IMG/VR virus record: IMGVR_UViG_3300029258_005404
Reading direction: 5' to 3' (one strand)
Length of the DNA: 64,000 bases
Source of the DNA: a virus
Shown here: in pieces, positions 2,791 through 51,576 of the stretch
Position numbering within the stretch: position 1 is the stretch's first letter
Layout of the letters: each line of letters opens with the position of its first letter
Made by a program: the position numbers and the translations under genes
Notes under the pieces: generated by a model
Seen by the model: only the letters and a program-made list of their open reading frames with translations
What the model was told of the DNA's origin: nothing
Database searches by the model: none

Positions 2791-3330
2791 TTAATCGTTA
2801 TTTTCTGATTCTTTTGTTTCCTCAACAAGCTTAGGGTCGCTTAACCCCGCTAATCCTTCTATTTCTTCCCGTTCCCCGGCGGTGTCGGCGGTATCGGCGG
2901 GTTCCGGTCCACTGGGTTCGTCGGTTAGTCCTTCGGCCTCTTCGGTTTGTTGTGCTTCTTCATTTTCTTCATCGACCTTTTCATCACCCTCAGTGTTATT
3001 ATATTCTTCAGGCCTTTTCGAATCTTGAACCCGCTCAGTTTCAGTATTCTCACTTTGTTCATCAGGGACCCCTTCTGCTGATTCCGTTTCAGTTATACCA
3101 GATTCTGTTTCAGGTGTTTTAAAATCTGGCACTTGAGTATTATTATCATTTGCCCCTTTTACTGTTTTATTTTCAGGCCTGTTATCAAGGCTTTCAAAAA
3201 ATCTTAATGCCGAACTTGAGTGCAGAACGTCAGCTTGGTCAAGATTAACAATTTCACCAGGTTGTACTGGTCTTTTTACCCTTCTTTTCACAACATATTT
3301 AATGCTATCTGATTTATTTACGAAACGCAT
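2791..3330 (-). CDS. Acidic capsid-module protein; start probably MRFVNK at 3330
   Basis: VKRRVKRPVQPGEIVNLD resembles VRRVKRWIAPGERVDLD of 2305..2739. The longer track start at 3381 lies inside a terminator hairpin. Confidence 0.6.
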   Translation of the reverse strand: MRFVNKSDSIKYVVKRRVKRPVQPGEIVNLDQADVLHSSSALRFFESLDNRPENKTVKGANDNNTQVPDFKTPETESGITETESAEGVPDEQSENTETERVQDSKRPEEYNNTEGDEKVDEENEEAQQTEEAEGLTDEPSGPEPADTADTAGEREEIEGLAGLSDPKLVEETKESENND

Positions 3331-16786: not shown

Positions 16787-17040
16787 AATATCAGTAAAAA
16801 GCTTCCAGGGCTGTCTCGAGAAGATAGCCCTGTCAGTCACTCGCACTATGCACAGCGAGCGTGAGAACGCAGATCTACAGCCTCTCAGTAAAGATAGGCG
16901 TTCTATTAGCACTCCGCAGGATTTACCTTTCTCAAAAAAAATGACCAGAACAAATATCAGTAGAAGTCATCTTGAAGATAAAAGAATGACTCATCACCAT
17001 TTGAGAAAGAATCGTATTCGTAGTAGTTATTTTCGATATT
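16787..17040 (+). ncRNA. Candidate retron-like msr-msd RNA upstream of the RT operon
   Basis: Closing arms AATATCAGTAAAAA|G (16787-16801) and TAG|TTATTTTCGATATT (17024-17040) pair at 11 of 14 positions. Internal hairpins at 16806-16832, 16840-16859, 16864-16904 and 16927-17009; a G-U pair favours the plus strand. Confidence 0.55.
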
Positions 17041-17044
17041 AACA

Positions 17045-17063
17045 TGTAATAACAATATTGTAG
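17045..17063 (+). promoter_or_regulatory. Putative promoter, TG-N-WATAAC-WATW motif
   Basis: TGTAATAACAATATTGTAG, nearly identical to TGTAATAACTATAGTGTAG at 39660. Confidence 0.45.
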
Positions 17064-17165: not shown

Positions 17166-18281
17166 ATGAAGAATAGGACGGTACATCTTTTCTTTCATGA
17201 TGATGTTGACGGAATTGTATCAGCAGCAATGATAATGAAAGGCTTTTTCAATGATCATGTTTATCGGCTTTATCCAGTAAAGTCCTCTATGAGAGGGGAG
17301 AAGTTTGACACCACCATCAAAAATCTACGCAAAGAAGCTCCGGAAGATGCCATTATAATAGTTGATTATCAGCACCATGCAGATGCTGATTTGTGGATTG
17401 ATCACCATTATAATCCTGACCTCGGTGAAAATGAATTGAAAAATGGAAATTTATTTTACAATTCAAAAGTAAAATCTGCTGCAAGGGTTATATATAATTG
17501 GTTTGAAAGCAATTCTGTATTAAAGGGCGCTGTGAATCAACATATCGTTGATATTGTAGATATGATTGATAGTGCTGGTTACAAAGATATCGATTATATA
17601 TTCTCCAGCACCGAGCCACTTATGATTCTTAAGGCTTACCTGGAACGCCTGTCAATTTATGTCGATTCTACTTATTGCAGAATAGTTGAATTAATTTATC
17701 ATTATGATTTCGATATTGATAAAGTGTTATTTACGCTAAATATCGATAATAACATTATTGATGAATTGAGAAAGTCAGCTAATGCTATTGGAAAGGCTAT
17801 GGTTGTTAATGGTGTAATGGGTGTAACTGAGATGAATCGCTTATACGCATACCCAAGATATTCAGAATATTTTGTAAAGCCTGATTTAATGTATTGTATC
17901 AGAGTTGTTCATTTGGGTGGTGACCGCGTCCAAATGGATGTTGGATATAATAAATGGCAAGATAAACCGTGTAAAGTACATATTGGTAAATTACTTGGTA
18001 GCCTTGAATATGCTATAAGTGGAGGTGGTCATTTTACTGTTGGTGGTGCGATAATCATAGAAAATGATATTGAGCGATTTATTGATGATATGTGCGTTCA
18101 GTTTAATGGTTCGGAGGACAGTATGGAAAAATATTCTGTTGATAAAACAGATCCTGTTGAGAAAAAATCTGATGAATTAATTAAAACCGGTGACGCTAAA
18201 ACAAAAGCCGATGCCAGGAGCAAAGTAACATCAAAATTGGAAGGAGGAGATTCAGAACGTGTTCAAAGCGGGGACGTCTAA
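17166..18281 (+). CDS. DHH/DHHA1-family phosphoesterase (nanoRNase-like)
   Basis: HDDVDG, IIVD and WIDHH motifs; C-terminal SGGGH; AAGGAG SD. Confidence 0.85.
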   Translation: MKNRTVHLFFHDDVDGIVSAAMIMKGFFNDHVYRLYPVKSSMRGEKFDTTIKNLRKEAPEDAIIIVDYQHHADADLWIDHHYNPDLGENELKNGNLFYNSKVKSAARVIYNWFESNSVLKGAVNQHIVDIVDMIDSAGYKDIDYIFSSTEPLMILKAYLERLSIYVDSTYCRIVELIYHYDFDIDKVLFTLNIDNNIIDELRKSANAIGKAMVVNGVMGVTEMNRLYAYPRYSEYFVKPDLMYCIRVVHLGGDRVQMDVGYNKWQDKPCKVHIGKLLGSLEYAISGGGHFTVGGAIIIENDIERFIDDMCVQFNGSEDSMEKYSVDKTDPVEKKSDELIKTGDAKTKADARSKVTSKLEGGDSERVQSGDV

Positions 18282-19329
18282 TTTCGACCTCAAACAGGTT
18301 CTAGGTGCAGAGCTAGAAACAGTCGATGAAATAATCGCTAATAAAGAAAATCATATTGAGCGAATATCAATTCCAAAAAAAAGCGGGGGCAAAAGAAATA
18401 TTATAGCCCCCGACCCGCAATTAAAATATATTCAAAAAAGTATATATTGGCGTGTATTCAGAAGGTATAAAGCTGACTCATCAGCTCACGGATTTGTTTC
18501 AAAAAGAGGAATCGTTACAAATGCCGATTGCCATGTTGGAGCCAAATGTCTTGGAAAAATAGATATTAAAGATTTTTTTGATTCAATATCTATTGACCAT
18601 TTAAAAAATTGTCTTTTTGGAAATAAACATATCTGCAGATATTGCAAGCATTATGAAAGAATGCTTGATGGAAGATGCAATCCATCATTGTATCACAATA
18701 AAACCCAAGTTTTTGATTTCAAATGTGAAGAAATTAAAGCAGTACATATACCTGAATATTGCGAAGAAACAGGATACATTTCATTATTTAATAGAATTAT
18801 AGAACTTTGCACTTTTGAAGGATTTACCGCGCAAGGATTCCCGACATCCCCTATGCTTGCCAATATAGTAATGCGCGGATTCGATAAATCAATGAAAGAA
18901 TTCTGTACCACAGAAGGAATTGCATACACAAGATATGCAGACGATCTTGCTTTCAGCAGTCATAATTTGACAAAATTCGAACTGAAAAAGAAAATAAAAC
19001 AAAAAGCCTATCAATTATTATGGGCTTATGGATTTACTCCAAATAAAAAGAAAACTATATGGAAATCAAGCGCCGGCCGACTTAAAATATGCGGTGTGGT
19101 AGTGAATGTTAAAAAATCAGTACAACGTAGAGATGTACATAAATTCAGAGCAGAAGTACATCATGCTACAGTAAAAAATGCTGATAAAACAACAAAAGGG
19201 GATTTGAGAAAATTAAAGGGATGGGCATCATTTTTAATGTCCATAGATCCTGTAAAGGGTAAAAAATACATGAATCAGCTTCTCAAGTTTGAAGCAGATA
19301 AATTTTCCATAAAATCAAAAGGAATATAA
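18259..19329 (+). CDS. Retron-type reverse transcriptase with a Cys-rich insertion
   Basis: IPKKSGGKRNI, AHGF, retron region-X NADCH, DIKDFFDSI, QGFPTSP, YTRYADDL and the VTG-equivalent ICGVVVN. GTG start with AAGGAGG SD, overlapping the DHH stop. Confidence 0.9.
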   Translation: MFKAGTSNFDLKQVLGAELETVDEIIANKENHIERISIPKKSGGKRNIIAPDPQLKYIQKSIYWRVFRRYKADSSAHGFVSKRGIVTNADCHVGAKCLGKIDIKDFFDSISIDHLKNCLFGNKHICRYCKHYERMLDGRCNPSLYHNKTQVFDFKCEEIKAVHIPEYCEETGYISLFNRIIELCTFEGFTAQGFPTSPMLANIVMRGFDKSMKEFCTTEGIAYTRYADDLAFSSHNLTKFELKKKIKQKAYQLLWAYGFTPNKKKTIWKSSAGRLKICGVVVNVKKSVQRRDVHKFRAEVHHATVKNADKTTKGDLRKLKGWASFLMSIDPVKGKKYMNQLLKFEADKFSIKSKGI

Positions 19330-19335
19330 TAAATA

Positions 19336-19839
19336 GTGGAATTTATGATATATACAGACGGGGGTTGTTCAGGAAACCAAAGAGGCGCTAACTGTCCGGG
19401 CGGATATGGTTATATAATCATTGATGCTGGAAATAATATATTGCGTCGTGGTGGTGGTTATCGAATCAATGTTACCAATAACCAGATGGAATTAATGGCT
19501 GTTATTCAAGGAATGAGGGCTTTAAAAAAGCTTCTGGATCAAGAATATGGTGGTGCTAAAAACCACTCATGTTTAATAAGGCCTGATTCTAAATATGTTT
19601 CAGACAATTACGAAGAATACTTACCTACATGGAAGAGAAATGGTTGGAGAAAGTCAAACAGAAAACCAGTTCTTAATGTTGCGTTATGGAAAAAGCTGGA
19701 TGCTTTGACCCCCGAATTTAAAGCATTCAAATTTAGTTGGGTCAAGGGTCATGCCCGAAGCAAGTTTAATAATATGGCTGACGGTATTGCTCAGGACAAA
19801 ATTAAAGAAGCAAAAGAATCCATAATCAATTCTGTGTAG
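19336..19839 (+). CDS. rnhA: Ribonuclease HI
   Basis: IYTDGGCSGN, TNNQMELMA, DSKYV, WKRNGW, WVKGH, NNMADGIA. Confidence 0.95.
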   Translation: MEFMIYTDGGCSGNQRGANCPGGYGYIIIDAGNNILRRGGGYRINVTNNQMELMAVIQGMRALKKLLDQEYGGAKNHSCLIRPDSKYVSDNYEEYLPTWKRNGWRKSNRKPVLNVALWKKLDALTPEFKAFKFSWVKGHARSKFNNMADGIAQDKIKEAKESIINSV

Positions 19840-19847
19840 GAGGAGCA

Positions 19848-20024
19848 ATGAAAAAAGATGAAAATGGTCAAGAGAAACATAATGCTCTGGTGGCAAAATT
19901 TAATCTTGCGGTTGATGCTGTATCATCATTTGCAAAAGGAATTTTTCCTTTTACAGTAAGGCTTGTAGTCGGCTTAAAAGATATATTTCATAAAAATGAA
20001 AAATCGCCTGAATCTAAAAATTAA
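19848..20024 (+). CDS. 58-aa small protein, last gene of the RT operon
   Basis: Below the track cutoff. AGGAGG SD; MKKDENGQEKHNALVAKFNLAVDAVSSFAKGIFPFTVRLVVGLKDIFHKNEKSPESKN. Confidence 0.65.
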   Translation: MKKDENGQEKHNALVAKFNLAVDAVSSFAKGIFPFTVRLVVGLKDIFHKNEKSPESKN

Positions 20025-20260
20025 CTATTGTGAAAGGAGAGAGTAAAATCTCTCACCTGAAACGATTCGTTTTGGGGGGTGAGTAATAAATGGTGCGGGC
20101 TTTTATCTCTCTTCAAGTTGAAGAGAGTATAAAATCCGAGTCAATCTCCGCCTGGTCACAGACCCGACACCACAACGTGTCGGGTCTGTGCGGGCCAGGC
20201 TTGGTGAGAACCAGCCTGGCCCCCGACCCCAGTCAGGTTCTGTTCCACAATAAGTTAATT
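20019..20260 (+). ncRNA. Retron-like msr-msd RNA downstream of the RT operon
   Basis: Closing stem AATTAACT-ATTGTGAAA|G pairs with G|TTCCACAAT-A-AGTTAATT. Hairpin TGAAACG-ATT-CGTTTTG at 20058-20074. Perfect stems at 20107-20127 (10 bp), 20157-20190 (14 bp) and 20192-20222 (10 bp plus a GAGA-looped tip). Confidence 0.7.
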
Positions 20261-20265
20261 GGAAA

Positions 20266-20291
20266 CTCTCTCCCGACCAGAGGGTTTTTTT
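20266..20291 (+). terminator. Intrinsic terminator ending the RT operon/ncRNA
   Basis: CTCTCT/AGAGGG stem followed by a T7 run. Confidence 0.55.
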
Positions 20292-20321
20292 AGCTATTAG
20301 AAGTTATTCTGATATGTAATA

Positions 20322-20336
20322 TGGTATAACTATAAT
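20322..20336 (+). promoter_or_regulatory. Extended -10-like promoter for the tRNA-like RNA
   Basis: TG-G-TATAAC; the hexamer ends 7 nt before the tRNA-like 5' end. Confidence 0.55.
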
Positions 20337-20398
20337 AACCTGTAACTCAGGGGAAGAGTGCTGGAAACAGAAGTCGGAGGTTCGAGTCCTCTCAGGTT
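20337..20398 (+). ncRNA. tRNA-like RNA lacking an anticodon loop
   Basis: Acceptor AACCTG/CAGGTT; D-arm ACTC-AGGGGAA-GAGT; CTG-GAAA-CAG in place of the anticodon arm; T-arm GGAGG-TTCGAGT-CCTCT. Confidence 0.7.
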
Positions 20399-20413
20399 TT
20401 TTTTATCTATAAT

Positions 20414-20443
20414 AAAAAAAAGCCCGGGGCATCACTCCCGGGC
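20414..20443 (-). terminator. Intrinsic terminator for the 20477 gene
   Basis: GCCCGGG/CCCGGGC stem with an A8 run (T-run on minus). Confidence 0.75.
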
Positions 20444-20476
20444 AACACATCACACATCCGCTTTCTATGAATAAGG

Positions 20477-22735
20477 CTATTCAATAGCAAGTTTTATTTC
20501 TTCAAGATTCTCTATTACCGTTTCAAGCCCATCCATTGCTTTTTTTACAGCGCCATCATCAACAGTGCTTAATCCCATTCTTGAAGCAACCAAAAGCTCA
20601 GCAAGATCTCCAGAGACCTTTTTCATTTCACGCACATTTTCAATATATCCATTAAGATTATCTTCGTTAATGAAATTTAATGACAAAACAACGTCTACCG
20701 CTTCAGGGTCATCAAGCACACTTGCTTCTTTAATCAGATTAATCCTCAAATTAGAACATTCATCTCTGATAATTTGTTTTATTTTTGCCATTTTATCAAG
20801 ATGCTTTATAACCCCAGTGTCAATATAATCGTTATTTACACCATATATAATTACTTTTTTATTTTTATTGTCGGTATTAGCATATTTTTCCAAAGCTGTT
20901 TTCATTGCTTTTGCTGAATCATCATGTCCCATTCCCATTATAGCTAACGCTTTATATGTTTGATCTGTTGTTAACGGATTTCCATTAAGATGGGCAACTT
21001 TATTTAATGGTTCGAATGGATCCCCCGCTATACAATACCCACCATCTTTAACATATAAAGCCACTTTATTAATATTGGCATCTTCATATATTTTCTGGAT
21101 TGATTTTGATGGGCGTAAAAAATCTTCTCTATTAAGACATTTCATCATTGATGCATTTATAACAAGAGAACCTTCCGGAATGAGAAATATTTTATTAACT
21201 TTACCCAATATCATTTTATAAACAGGATCAAGAACAGTTTTAACACGTTGTACAGATGCAACGTTGGCAGGTATTATAGCCTCTTCTCTTGATACATATA
21301 CATTTGAATTATTTACCCTGTATTTTCTAAATTTTCGACCAAATGAAAGGCATTCAAATGCATCATCGGCACCATATATTATCAAAAGATTTTGTCCGTA
21401 TCTGCTAGAAGGAACTTCACCATAATACCCATCATCTTTTTTTCCCTGATCCATAATCTGTTGCATTTCTTTATGTACCGCTAAGAAATTTTTATCTGAT
21501 CCATCATTTTTATTTTCAGGATCAATATTTATTAAATCGTCAGTAACCCTTTTCGCAAGATACTGGATTGCTTTTTGAAGCGCCCCTTCTTGAGTTAACA
21601 CATTAGAGCCATAGAAGCCTATTCCAGTACGATTATAATCATCATATTTGCAGTAATATTTTCCGTCAAGCGATATAAAAATTTGATTACGCCTTTGACG
21701 TTCGTTTTTCTTTTCTGTATTTTTATCAACAGGATAGCATGTCTCAGGTTCATCAAATCTTTGGTTTAAATCATAACTATCAGTCATATCAAGAATAATT
21801 CCTGATAACGGTTTTCCAGTTGTACTTGCCAGAAAGCGACTGGCCATATTTTTACCACTTTCAATAAAATCCTCCATTGATGGATATTCATACATTCTTA
21901 ACTCACAAACAGTAGGAGCAATCATAGGTTTCAATTGATTAACATCAATAAATTGTGAATCAAGAATGGTAACTGCGCGCTTTGCTTTGACTACTTTATA
22001 AGTATCAAGTATACCATCTTTATGATCATCACCAATTATCCTATTATGCCTGTTTAATTCTATAATATTACCAACCAAGTCGCCAGTATTGTCAATAAAA
22101 TTTTTACCAACATTTTCATCTGTTTCCATTTGCACAGCAAGTTTTTCAATAGCCTCTTTATCTGCTTTTATTGGCCATCCAGACATTTTTGCAAAATGAG
22201 GGTATGCTGCGAGGTCCGGTACGTCTTGAATACTTACCGGCGTTTTAGGATAAATGCCACCAACTGGTTTTATTGCTTCAAAGGCCCCTCTTGGATATTT
22301 ATTTTTTGGAGTTCCCAGTTGCTCTGACATAAGAACTTTTTTAATATTTTTCAAATTTGCAGCTACATATTTAGTCTTGTCCCCATCCCTATAGACAAAA
22401 ATATCAAACGGGCTTAATTGAAAATTTTTTACAATAACTGGAAAATTAATTTGCTTATTCTGATACCATACAGCAACACTCCCCTTTGCATACCCTTCGT
22501 TTTCATCTACATTTTTAACTATCACATCGGTACCAAACTCTTTTGGAAGATAGTTAATCTGTTCGAAAAACTGATCCAGTATTTCCTGATCCCATTCAGA
22601 AATATTTTTAGGCAACTCGTAAGTGCCAATTTTTTCAAATACCAATTGGTTTATTACTGATTCTTTTACTGTAACCATTTTTATTTCCTTGTTTATGTTT
22701 CGATTACATTCGGTTTCAGGACTGAGTACATCCAC
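20477..22735 (-). CDS. Large virion structural protein; start may be MVTVKES near 22678
   Basis: About 730-750 aa in the late-strand operon, with many KxA motifs. Confidence 0.6.
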   Translation of the reverse strand: MDVLSPETECNRNINKEIKMVTVKESVINQLVFEKIGTYELPKNISEWDQEILDQFFEQINYLPKEFGTDVIVKNVDENEGYAKGSVAVWYQNKQINFPVIVKNFQLSPFDIFVYRDGDKTKYVAANLKNIKKVLMSEQLGTPKNKYPRGAFEAIKPVGGIYPKTPVSIQDVPDLAAYPHFAKMSGWPIKADKEAIEKLAVQMETDENVGKNFIDNTGDLVGNIIELNRHNRIIGDDHKDGILDTYKVVKAKRAVTILDSQFIDVNQLKPMIAPTVCELRMYEYPSMEDFIESGKNMASRFLASTTGKPLSGIILDMTDSYDLNQRFDEPETCYPVDKNTEKKNERQRRNQIFISLDGKYYCKYDDYNRTGIGFYGSNVLTQEGALQKAIQYLAKRVTDDLINIDPENKNDGSDKNFLAVHKEMQQIMDQGKKDDGYYGEVPSSRYGQNLLIIYGADDAFECLSFGRKFRKYRVNNSNVYVSREEAIIPANVASVQRVKTVLDPVYKMILGKVNKIFLIPEGSLVINASMMKCLNREDFLRPSKSIQKIYEDANINKVALYVKDGGYCIAGDPFEPLNKVAHLNGNPLTTDQTYKALAIMGMGHDDSAKAMKTALEKYANTDNKNKKVIIYGVNNDYIDTGVIKHLDKMAKIKQIIRDECSNLRINLIKEASVLDDPEAVDVVLSLNFINEDNLNGYIENVREMKKVSGDLAELLVASRMGLSTVDDGAVKKAMDGLETVIENLEEIKLAIE

Positions 22736-33282: not shown

Positions 33283-33374
33283 CCTTGGTTATAAAAACGA
33301 AAACGAGGTTATATAGATAATATAACATTAATGTATGATTACGGCAAATGCCTATGTGATTATCAAAAAAAATC

Positions 33375-33390
33375 TGATATAACAATTATA
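33375..33390 (+). promoter_or_regulatory. Putative promoter, TG-N-WATAAC-WATW motif
   Basis: TGATATAACAATTATA upstream of the plus-strand block starting at 33450. Confidence 0.45.
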
Positions 33391-39639: not shown

Positions 39640-39705
39640 TGTGATTACCAATGTGTTTTTGTAATAACTATAGTGTAGTGGTTAAATCTATTTCTTTCGG
39701 AGGAA

Positions 39706-41612: not shown

Positions 41613-41911
41613 AAGTACAAGAGTGATACTGGTGATTCGCCAGTGCGAAAATATTTATGTGGACGCGATGTTACATAGCGCAGGGACCTGCAGCGGGAGT
41701 CATTAACACTCCCGATTCCAGGTTCGGGCCTGAGTCCTACACCTGGAATCGGGTAGCATAATGACTCCCGCTGCAGGTGGTCGGCGCTAGTAACATCTGC
41801 TAAACCTGAATACACGATTTTAATCGGCTGAAATCCCGGAAAATGCGGTAGCTTTTCCGGGATAGCAGCACGATCTAAAATCGCTCATTAAGGTCTATCT
41901 TAGTTGTACTT
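41613..41911 (+). ncRNA. Retron-like msr-msd unit 1 of the array
   Basis: AAGTACAA|G ... TTAG|TTGTACTT; hairpin ACTGGTG-ATT-CGCCAGT; 131-nt rod 41667-41797 with perfect 20-bp and 13-bp stems; second rod 41815-41883. Confidence 0.8.
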
Positions 41912-41924
41912 CAAAAAGAATATT

Positions 41925-42133
41925 AAGCATGAGAGCTTTACACCTGATGTTTCGTCAGGGTAGCTTACCGCTAAAGCTGACATCCCTCACGAGTTGGTCG
42001 GAAAATAAATTCCTGTACCAATATCCGTCGGGATGACCGTCAGCTTTCGCTACTTTTCATCCCGACGAATGTTGGACCAGGAATTAATTTTCCTCTTGCC
42101 AACTCGCAGTGATGATCTATATTAGTCATGCTT
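41925..42133 (+). ncRNA. Retron-like msr-msd unit 2
   Basis: AAGCATGA|G ... TTAG|TCATGCTT; hairpin CCTGATG-TTT-CGTCAGG; rod 41987-42112. Confidence 0.8.
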
Positions 42134-42172
42134 TTGAGCGGGAAAGGTGATGAGTATCACCTTCCCGCCATT

Positions 42173-42360
42173 ATTGTAAGGGCGAATCTGATGGTTCATC
42201 AGAAATGAAGTTAAATAAGTACACAGTATTGTGTTACCTGGAGGAACACGGGCCCATCCGCCCTGCCTGTTTCAGTCTTCTTACAGAAGACTTACACGGC
42301 GTGCGGTAGGGCCCGCCGTTCCCCAGCAAACCCAATCTGTATCAAAATTATAGTTACAAT
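42173..42360 (+). ncRNA. Retron-like msr-msd unit 3
   Basis: ATTGTAA|G ... ATAG|TTACAAT; hairpin TCTGATG-GTT-CATCAGA; rod 42238-42326. Confidence 0.78.
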
Positions 42361-42366
42361 TTAATA

Positions 42367-42568
42367 ACGCAAGTTGCTCAATCGAGACGTTTCGTCTCGG
42401 CCCGATTTTGGGTGCGCAGGCACCATCTGAAAAATTATTCCAGGTCCGTTCCCGGATACTCGGGTTCGCTGGAATAAGCGATACCCGGGTATCCGTTCAG
42501 GACCGTTTCACAATTTTTCAATAGGTGCTCTGCTTTCTTGACCAGCAAAATATTCTATATAGTTGCGT
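42367..42568 (+). ncRNA. Retron-like msr-msd unit 4
   Basis: ACGCAA|G ... ATAG|TTGCGT; hairpin CGAGACG-TTT-CGTCTCG; rod 42416-42533. Confidence 0.78.
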
Positions 42569-42604
42569 CAATGGCGTGAAAGGCGCTAATTTTTTTTAAA
42601 TAAG

Positions 42605-42803
42605 ATTTGATATATAAGAATTAAAAAAAAAGGATGGTGTTTCGCCATCATGTTAATTAATTAAGACCTCAAAAATTGATGGTGCAGCTCGGCAACAGTC
42701 CTCAGTTTTAATCCTTGATAAGAATTAAAACTCACGGACTTTTTGCCCGGCTGCTCCACAATTTTTTTCACCTTGTAATATCAATATTAGTTATATATCA
42801 AAT
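42605..42803 (+). ncRNA. Retron-like msr-msd unit 5
   Basis: ATTTGATATATAA|G ... TTAG|TTATATATCAAAT (13 bp perfect); hairpin GATGGTG-TTT-CGCCATC; rod 42671-42766. Confidence 0.8.
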
Positions 42804-51205: not shown

Positions 51206-51532
51206 ATGGCACGGAATGAGAAAAAAATTCAAACGAAAATCTTAAAAGACCTAGAGTCTTTTGGAAAGTATTGCGAATGCTTTAAAATAGAAAAGGCAAA
51301 TAAGAATGGTGAGCCTGATATATTCTTTACCACATTACTTACTGGCGCTGTTTTTATTGAATGTAAGCGCCTTACCGGATATGCTAAAAGATTACAGCTA
51401 TTTAAAATAGAAAAATTGAAAAATTGTGGATGTAAAGCATTTGTATGCCACTCATGGGAAGAGTGGTGCGAAATAAAAAATGAACTTGGTTTAACAAAAA
51501 TAGCTGTTATCCGCTTATACAATATGGAATAA
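51206..51532 (+). CDS. VRR-NUC / PD-(D/E)XK nuclease
   Basis: EKKIQ, GEPDI, FIECKR, QLFKIEKL. Confidence 0.8.
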   Translation: MARNEKKIQTKILKDLESFGKYCECFKIEKANKNGEPDIFFTTLLTGAVFIECKRLTGYAKRLQLFKIEKLKNCGCKAFVCHSWEEWCEIKNELGLTKIAVIRLYNME

Positions 51533-51576
51533 CTATAATGTAAAGAATAATATTCATATTAAGGAGGATATATATA

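Follow-up and report, generated by a model that had tools for sequence, protein, structure and literature searches.

A selected, anticodon-less tRNA mimic encoded as a putative small-RNA gene in a phage genome

The 64,000-nt stretch of DNA analyzed here (the window) corresponds to bases 72298-136297 of a complete 186,450-bp virus record, a phage genome that encodes a terminase and a fused beta/beta-prime RNA polymerase. On the plus strand, an operon at 17166..20260 comprises DHH, retron-type RT and RNase H genes, a 58-aa ORF and a structured RNA; it is core to the phage clade and mimic-independent, and its RT scores as retron type. The operon and its retron-like RNA end in an intrinsic terminator (20268..20297, plus strand), after which a promoter motif leads into a 62-nt RNA (20337..20398, plus strand) that, by direct reading, Rfam, folding and a check of core positions, represents positions 2-71 of a tRNA body without an anticodon. 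Strong folding of 19990-20480 (z -10.6) reflects the structured RNA 5' of this tRNA mimic, and the terminator of a convergent, conserved 733-aa gene (20422..20443, minus strand) lies outside it. With the RNase H, the peptide and the 733-aa gene as its neighbors, the mimic is solitary in a slot 3' of the retron-type operon, far from any tRNA cluster or Pth2-like gene. The retron-like RNA itself (window 20030-20260) has a 3' part that is almost invariant among seven phages and two hairpins in which the sequence is free to vary and pairing is preserved; a literature search returned no paper combining retron, DHH, RNase H and phage. A near-identical RT is found on a 2.8-kb contig labeled Candidatus Shapirobacteria (GCA_003647605.1, QMND01000158.1; L148), which is probably a mis-binned phage piece and not evidence of the host.

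The acceptor stem of the mimic has 6 bp (20337-42 paired with 20393-98); a seventh pair, 1:72, would be U.U in both lineages that carry the RNA. The D arm (20345..20359, plus strand) consists of a 4-bp stem (20345-48/20356-59) and a 7-nt loop with G18 and G19, the variable region has 5 nt, and the T arm (20376..20392, plus strand) has a 5-bp stem including one G.U pair and a canonical T loop at 20381-87. The 5-bp stem and 7-nt loop of a canonical anticodon arm are absent, and a sealed stump of 3 bp and a GAAA tetraloop (CUG-GAAA-CAG; 20361..20370, plus strand) stands in their place. Eight T residues (20397-20404) occupy the 3' side, and CCA is not encoded. All 13 core positions checked (U8, A14, G15, G18, G19, A21, C48, G53, U54, U55, C56, A58 and C61) are present, as are A9, G26, A44 and G46 as read from the sequence. 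The MFE fold of 20337-20404 reproduces this cloverleaf exactly; its stability is no greater than that of shuffles (z 0.43), which is common for tRNAs. Rfam RF00005 matches 20336-20400 with 39.7 bits (gathering 29; E 5.5e-6) and skips the anticodon arm alone, and ARAGORN reported nothing at the locus. The first-pass annotation, which had suggested both searches, had described a 62-nt tRNA mimic with GG in the D-arm, a T-loop, a 6-bp acceptor stem, CTG-GAAA-CAG and no CCA, an anatomy that direct reading and Rfam bear out. By this anatomy, decoding by the mimic is ruled out.

The surroundings of the mimic suggest that it is an accessory small-RNA gene of the phage, transcribed on its own. A phage-wide promoter motif (GTKAT, 14-nt spacer, TGG-nATAA-n, nATWWT) lies directly upstream (20303..20336, plus strand). 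The motif has 21 plus-strand copies and one minus-strand copy in the genome, precedes many ORFs and the RT operon, is found clade-wide, and is possibly read by the phage's own RNA polymerase. Copies in the window include 17026-17059, 33356-33389, 39641-39674 and 51506-51539, and one stands immediately 5' of the DHH-RT operon (window 17045). The base directly 3' of the motif, a position unconstrained by the search pattern, is a purine in 51 of 51 distinct clade copies; read as the +1, this purine would here be 20337, the first paired base of the mimic. The extended -10 pointed out in the earlier annotation is real and a member of this motif, but the motif holds two overlapping -10-like hexamers, the second of which would shift the start to ~20343, so that the start site remains a prediction. 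The T-run recognized earlier is likewise present, as eight T residues followed by the tail ATCTAT (20397..20410, plus strand), which together mark the predicted 3' end. Because the same tail motif follows the T-runs of the phage's hairpin terminators, the T arm and acceptor helix would double as a terminator. This tail also forms the right boundary repeat of a cassette whose left boundary repeat is the T-run and AGCTAT tail of the upstream terminator. The mimic unit thus occupies a variable cassette slot between two terminators.

Using RT homologs, we located the loci of eight close lineages, the window phage included, with RTs that are 81-88% identical. Two independent assemblies of the window phage are identical in sequence here, which excludes an assembly error. 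An ortholog with the same promoter and RNA is present in one other close lineage (L138-L141, four assemblies; Rfam 45.3 bits), in the same slot and with an identical cap, giving the conservation in relatives for which a check had been suggested. The mimic is thus found in two of the eight close lineages and in none of the more distant ones. In the other six close lineages the slot is empty and the upstream terminator tail continues straight toward the next gene. A full tRNA in the slot of relatives, which would have made this copy a one-off deletion, was not found in any close relative. The two carriers are not sisters, since L138 groups with the empty lineage L135 (tree support 0.99); the cassette has therefore been lost several times over or has moved, and its flanking repeats would make both easy. 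More distant members have the same promoter in front of other cargo, namely a structured RNA in L002 and ORFs in L166 and L211, and L166 and L198 carry unrelated tRNAs inside longer inserts. The L002 RNA (3018-3180) is small, with two long AU-rich hairpins (z -2.8), its own terminator and no Rfam match; the expanded slots at L211 2657-2816, L166 8087-8372 and L198 6690-6800 contain tRNAs along with weak tRNA-like matches whose D arms are odd. Beyond these loci, blastn searches of phages and plasmids matched nothing but the T arms of ordinary tRNAs, and sequence-specific patterns detected no mimic homolog in IMG/VR and GTDB, such that sequence homologs are confined to two lineages of one phage clade.

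Several lines of evidence, all drawn from two independent mimic sequences, bear on selection. First, 7 of 64 positions (11%) distinguish the two alleles, as opposed to 238 of 430 fourfold sites (55%) in four flanking genes (binomial P 1e-13). In the same cassette of L138, the promoter motif is kept and its spacer differs at 8 of 14 positions. Second, all 18 pairs are preserved in both alleles, one of them via a double change. From the window allele to the L138 allele, C4 changes to U, turning C-G into U.G; A10-U25 in the D arm becomes G10-C25; A45 becomes G; G49 becomes A, turning G49.U65 in the T arm into A49-U65; and the remaining changes fall on the free positions 16 and 59. A45 changes together with the 10-25 pair, as expected from the 10-25-45 base triple known in tRNA. 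Third, seven random changes spare all pairs and the core in just 0.3-1.8% of trials. Fourth, the GAAA-capped stump is identical in both alleles. This pattern of substitutions shows that the mimic is under purifying selection. The proposal of the first-pass annotation that the clean tetraloop reflects design rather than decay is thus strengthened by an ortholog in which purifying selection has maintained the fold and an unaltered cap, and by close relatives in which the slot holds no full tRNA.

Similar short-arm tRNA look-alikes recur in viruses. A loose pattern that required only D and T arms, set too close together to leave room for an anticodon arm, matched more than 115 viral stretches. 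Of 91 distinct look-alikes, 87 form the complete T stem, 75 have six or more acceptor pairs, and six encode CCA. At the exact spacing of the mimic, half of the 22 distinct viral matches, for which the D arm, the T arm and the spacing were the sole selection criteria, carry a complete 3-bp stump (11/22; P 4e-9), and in every one of these 11 the loop begins with G, four being GNRA. Across 596 billion bases of cellular genomes, a slightly stricter pattern matched just 19 stretches. Judged from these matches, the viral look-alikes are alike in design, not in sequence. Strong covariation among class members was set aside as evidence, as members were chosen for pairing and may not be homologous. When 48 clade loci and three additional genomes (G001-G003) were searched with a model built on ten members of the class (R1), only ordinary or odd full-length tRNAs came up and the class gained no member. 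One related phage has another odd tRNA-like RNA, in which the D arm is reduced and GCGA caps a long anticodon-arm helix (L128 1501-1574; G003 132004-132077, minus strand). A literature search, with most subscription papers beyond reach, found nothing relevant on anticodon-less phage tRNA-like RNAs. ARAGORN misses such genes, and they would be discarded as pseudo-tRNAs.

Altogether, these observations make it very probable that the mimic is a functional non-decoding RNA. As for what it does, we tentatively favor a scenario in which it is an uncleavable early decoy for host enzymes that attack tRNA; a decoy for tRNA-targeting defence nucleases, offered as an example by the first-pass annotation, is thus plausible. 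Transcription would start at the first paired base, 20337, and stop in the U run, yielding a ready-folded RNA of ~65-68 nt that needs no RNase P cut; because its promoter is of the class common to the phage's plus-strand genes, it would be made early. The mimic, neither cleavable nor consumable, would then occupy a host enzyme that grips the tRNA body or elbow, and with this enzyme occupied during infection the real tRNA pool would be spared. Candidate targets are PrrC/RloC, AriB, OLD and Schlafen-type anticodon-arm nucleases, or acceptor-end toxins. The elbow and core are the surface gripped by tRNA-binding enzymes, and selection on the mimic acts on them. Patchy presence in two of eight close lineages is typical of host-specific counter-defence genes, as is an accessory, early-class character, the mimic has a promoter and a terminator tail of its own, and the design of a 3-bp stump with a G-led tetraloop recurs in unrelated viruses. 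Several defences, including AriB, P2-OLD and Schlafen, cut the anticodon arm (PMC11464382, PMC12445682, PMC13056530). It is the combination of selection on elbow and core, an accessory, early and patchy gene, and defences that cut the anticodon arm that leads us to favor a decoy.

Some observations weigh against a decoy. Nuclease-resistant phage tRNAs are documented (PMC10264068, PMC11464382, PMC12445682), but the published rescues replace the cut tRNA for decoding and are not decoys. Moreover, the loop absent from the mimic is what many anticodon nucleases recognize, and a start near 20343, if the second hexamer were the true -10, would abolish the acceptor stem. The stump is a paired CUG/CAG, the motif cut by P2-OLD; however, OLD substrates additionally share A37 and a full stem, and CNG/CNG is absent from other viral class members, so that the match may be chance (~1 in 16) and this link is only a lead. 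Searches of the window phage genome (G000) for Ro60, RtcB, SmpB and a CCA enzyme gave no match, which makes it probable that the partner of the mimic is a protein of the host or an unnamed one of the phage. An RtcB RNA ligase is encoded in one relative (G002 143774-144850; L251), a hint at tRNA damage as a pressure on the clade.

In the current view, phage tRNAs work against host tRNA nucleases by substituting for tRNAs that have been cut. A conserved non-decoding tRNA body must act otherwise, and it probes whether shape alone, i.e., elbow and acceptor helix, serves infection. A wider generalization, which we consider possible yet somewhat unlikely, is that phages make a minimal, processing-free tRNA-body RNA that inhibits host tRNA-destroying defences as a decoy and not as a replacement, with the 62-nt gene among the smallest self-contained members of a virus-enriched class overlooked by tRNA finders. 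The mimic lends itself to experiments: with promoter and terminator it spans ~110 bases, nature supplies two alleles, and the site is cleanly empty in relatives.

Among the alternatives, we consider it unlikely, although less so than those that follow, that the mimic is a partner of the phage's translation-rescue kit, in which it would help to clear stalled ribosomes or peptidyl-tRNA through binding a protein of the phage or host, either one placed as SmpB is, on the missing arm, or the Pth2-like hydrolase. Besides a tmRNA, the genome carries a hydrolase-family ORF, a second tRNA-like RNA and a CUA tRNA around genome position 13.4-14.7 kb, and the tRNA-like domain of tmRNA likewise has no anticodon. 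However, the mimic lies 78 kb from the tRNA/hydrolase cluster, the hydrolase-family ORF fails Pfam PTH2, the same SmpB, CCA-adding enzyme and RtcB searches of G000, and one for TROVE, were without a match, and the mimic has no encoded CCA, no G3.U70 and a stem of just 6 bp. The second tRNA-like RNA (G000 genome 14316-14398, outside the window; L133 1501-1583) has a CCA, an expanded anticodon loop and an Rfam score of 31 bits; it follows the hydrolase-family (Pth2-like) ORF and lies 240 bases before the CUA tRNA, which has an altered D/T-loop pair. The phage tmRNA (G000 genome 180683-181090) has an unusual tag ending in ETAVL, in a genome with no SmpB match.

Two further explanations are improbable. 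In one, the host enzyme would add CCA to the trimmed mimic, which, once charged, would donate or soak up amino acids in a role other than decoding. CCA-adding enzymes measure the T arm and the acceptor helix, both of which are intact and conserved in the mimic, M. smegmatis YrlA receives CCA in vivo (PMC4201824), and the viral look-alikes mostly keep a 6-7 bp acceptor stem with CCA unencoded (75 and 6 of 91, respectively, for the stem and for an encoded CCA). Position 1, however, is absent or mispaired, a run of U forms the 3' end, and the AU-rich stem presents no clear identity set. In the other, to which we give equally little credence, the mimic is a decayed tRNA pseudogene, or a remnant that seems conserved through a recent swap between two phages. 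Most relatives are without it, its non-sister carriers require transfer or repeated loss, and the boundary repeats ease loss; against a swap or decay, the cassette's own spacer has diverged to the level of neutral sites (8/14), changes are compensatory, and the slot of no close relative holds a full-length parent. Neutral decay with loss of pairs is contradicted by the 11% versus 55% divergence and the compensatory changes, and is largely refuted.

It is highly improbable that the mimic, as a decoy for the uncharged-tRNA sensors named in the first-pass annotation, dampens uncharged-tRNA sensing, in the stringent response or at T-boxes, by competing for sensors: it resembles an uncharged tRNA body and is predicted to be early, but the anticodon and CCA that sensors need are both absent. 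RelA needs an A-site, codon-paired tRNA with CCA, and T-boxes read the anticodon and NCCA; any role of the mimic at these sensors could therefore only be inhibitory. Least probable of all is the partnership with the RT operon raised by the first-pass annotation, in which the mimic would be a primer or cofactor of the adjoining retron-type RT and its RNase H, much as retroviral RTs use tRNAs: the two are adjacent on the same strand and the operon has its own RNase H and the same promoter class, but the operon is present in every relative as opposed to a mimic in two of eight close and no distant lineages, the mimic has a separate promoter after the operon terminator, the slot carries other cargo elsewhere (the L002 RNA; the L211 and L166 ORFs), the RT is of retron type by score and retrons rely on their own RNA for priming, and a primer-binding site was not found, the phage genome containing no 10-nt complement of the mimic 3' end and duplexes of this end with the retron-like RNAs being no better than shuffles. 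The whole mimic against an array at 41613-42803 beat 96 of 100 shuffles; this was one of six tests and is taken as chance.

With canonical bacterial and phage tRNAs (Rfam RF00005), the mimic shares the linear cloverleaf order, the D and T arms, the tertiary-core bases and a score above gathering; it differs from them in having no anticodon loop, a 3-bp stump, a 6-bp acceptor stem and no encoded CCA. The mascRNA and menRNA of animals are likewise ~60-nt tRNA-like RNAs with a reduced anticodon arm and unencoded CCA; however, they are of unrelated origin and are cut from a long RNA by RNase P and RNase Z, whereas the phage mimic is a stand-alone gene. The tRNA-like domain of tmRNA resembles it in its acceptor/T half, canonical T loop and missing anticodon. 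By contrast, the mimic lacks an mRNA domain and tag, possesses a true D stem, has A3-U70 rather than G3.U70 and no CCA, and the phage tmRNA is separate. Unlike nuclease-resistant phage tRNAs (PMC10264068, PMC11464382, PMC12445682), it is predicted to start at the first paired base and cannot rescue decoding. The YrlA Y RNAs of bacteria and phages are also non-decoding mimics of the D and T arms and elbow; they are permuted, with a closed acceptor stem between the T and D arms and a Ro-binding stem at the ends, and lie beside a Ro60 gene (Chen et al. 2014, PMC4201824). The phage mimic differs from these in its ordinary tRNA order, in having no Ro module and in its lack of an Rfam Y-RNA match, and a search of G000 for a TROVE gene (PF05731) gave no match. 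Thus, on the evidence of its sequence, the RNA is a real, selected, non-decoding tRNA mimic, with predicted expression and a putative function, that is neither a tRNA, a tmRNA nor a YrlA RNA and that by its shape would act like those tRNA mimics.
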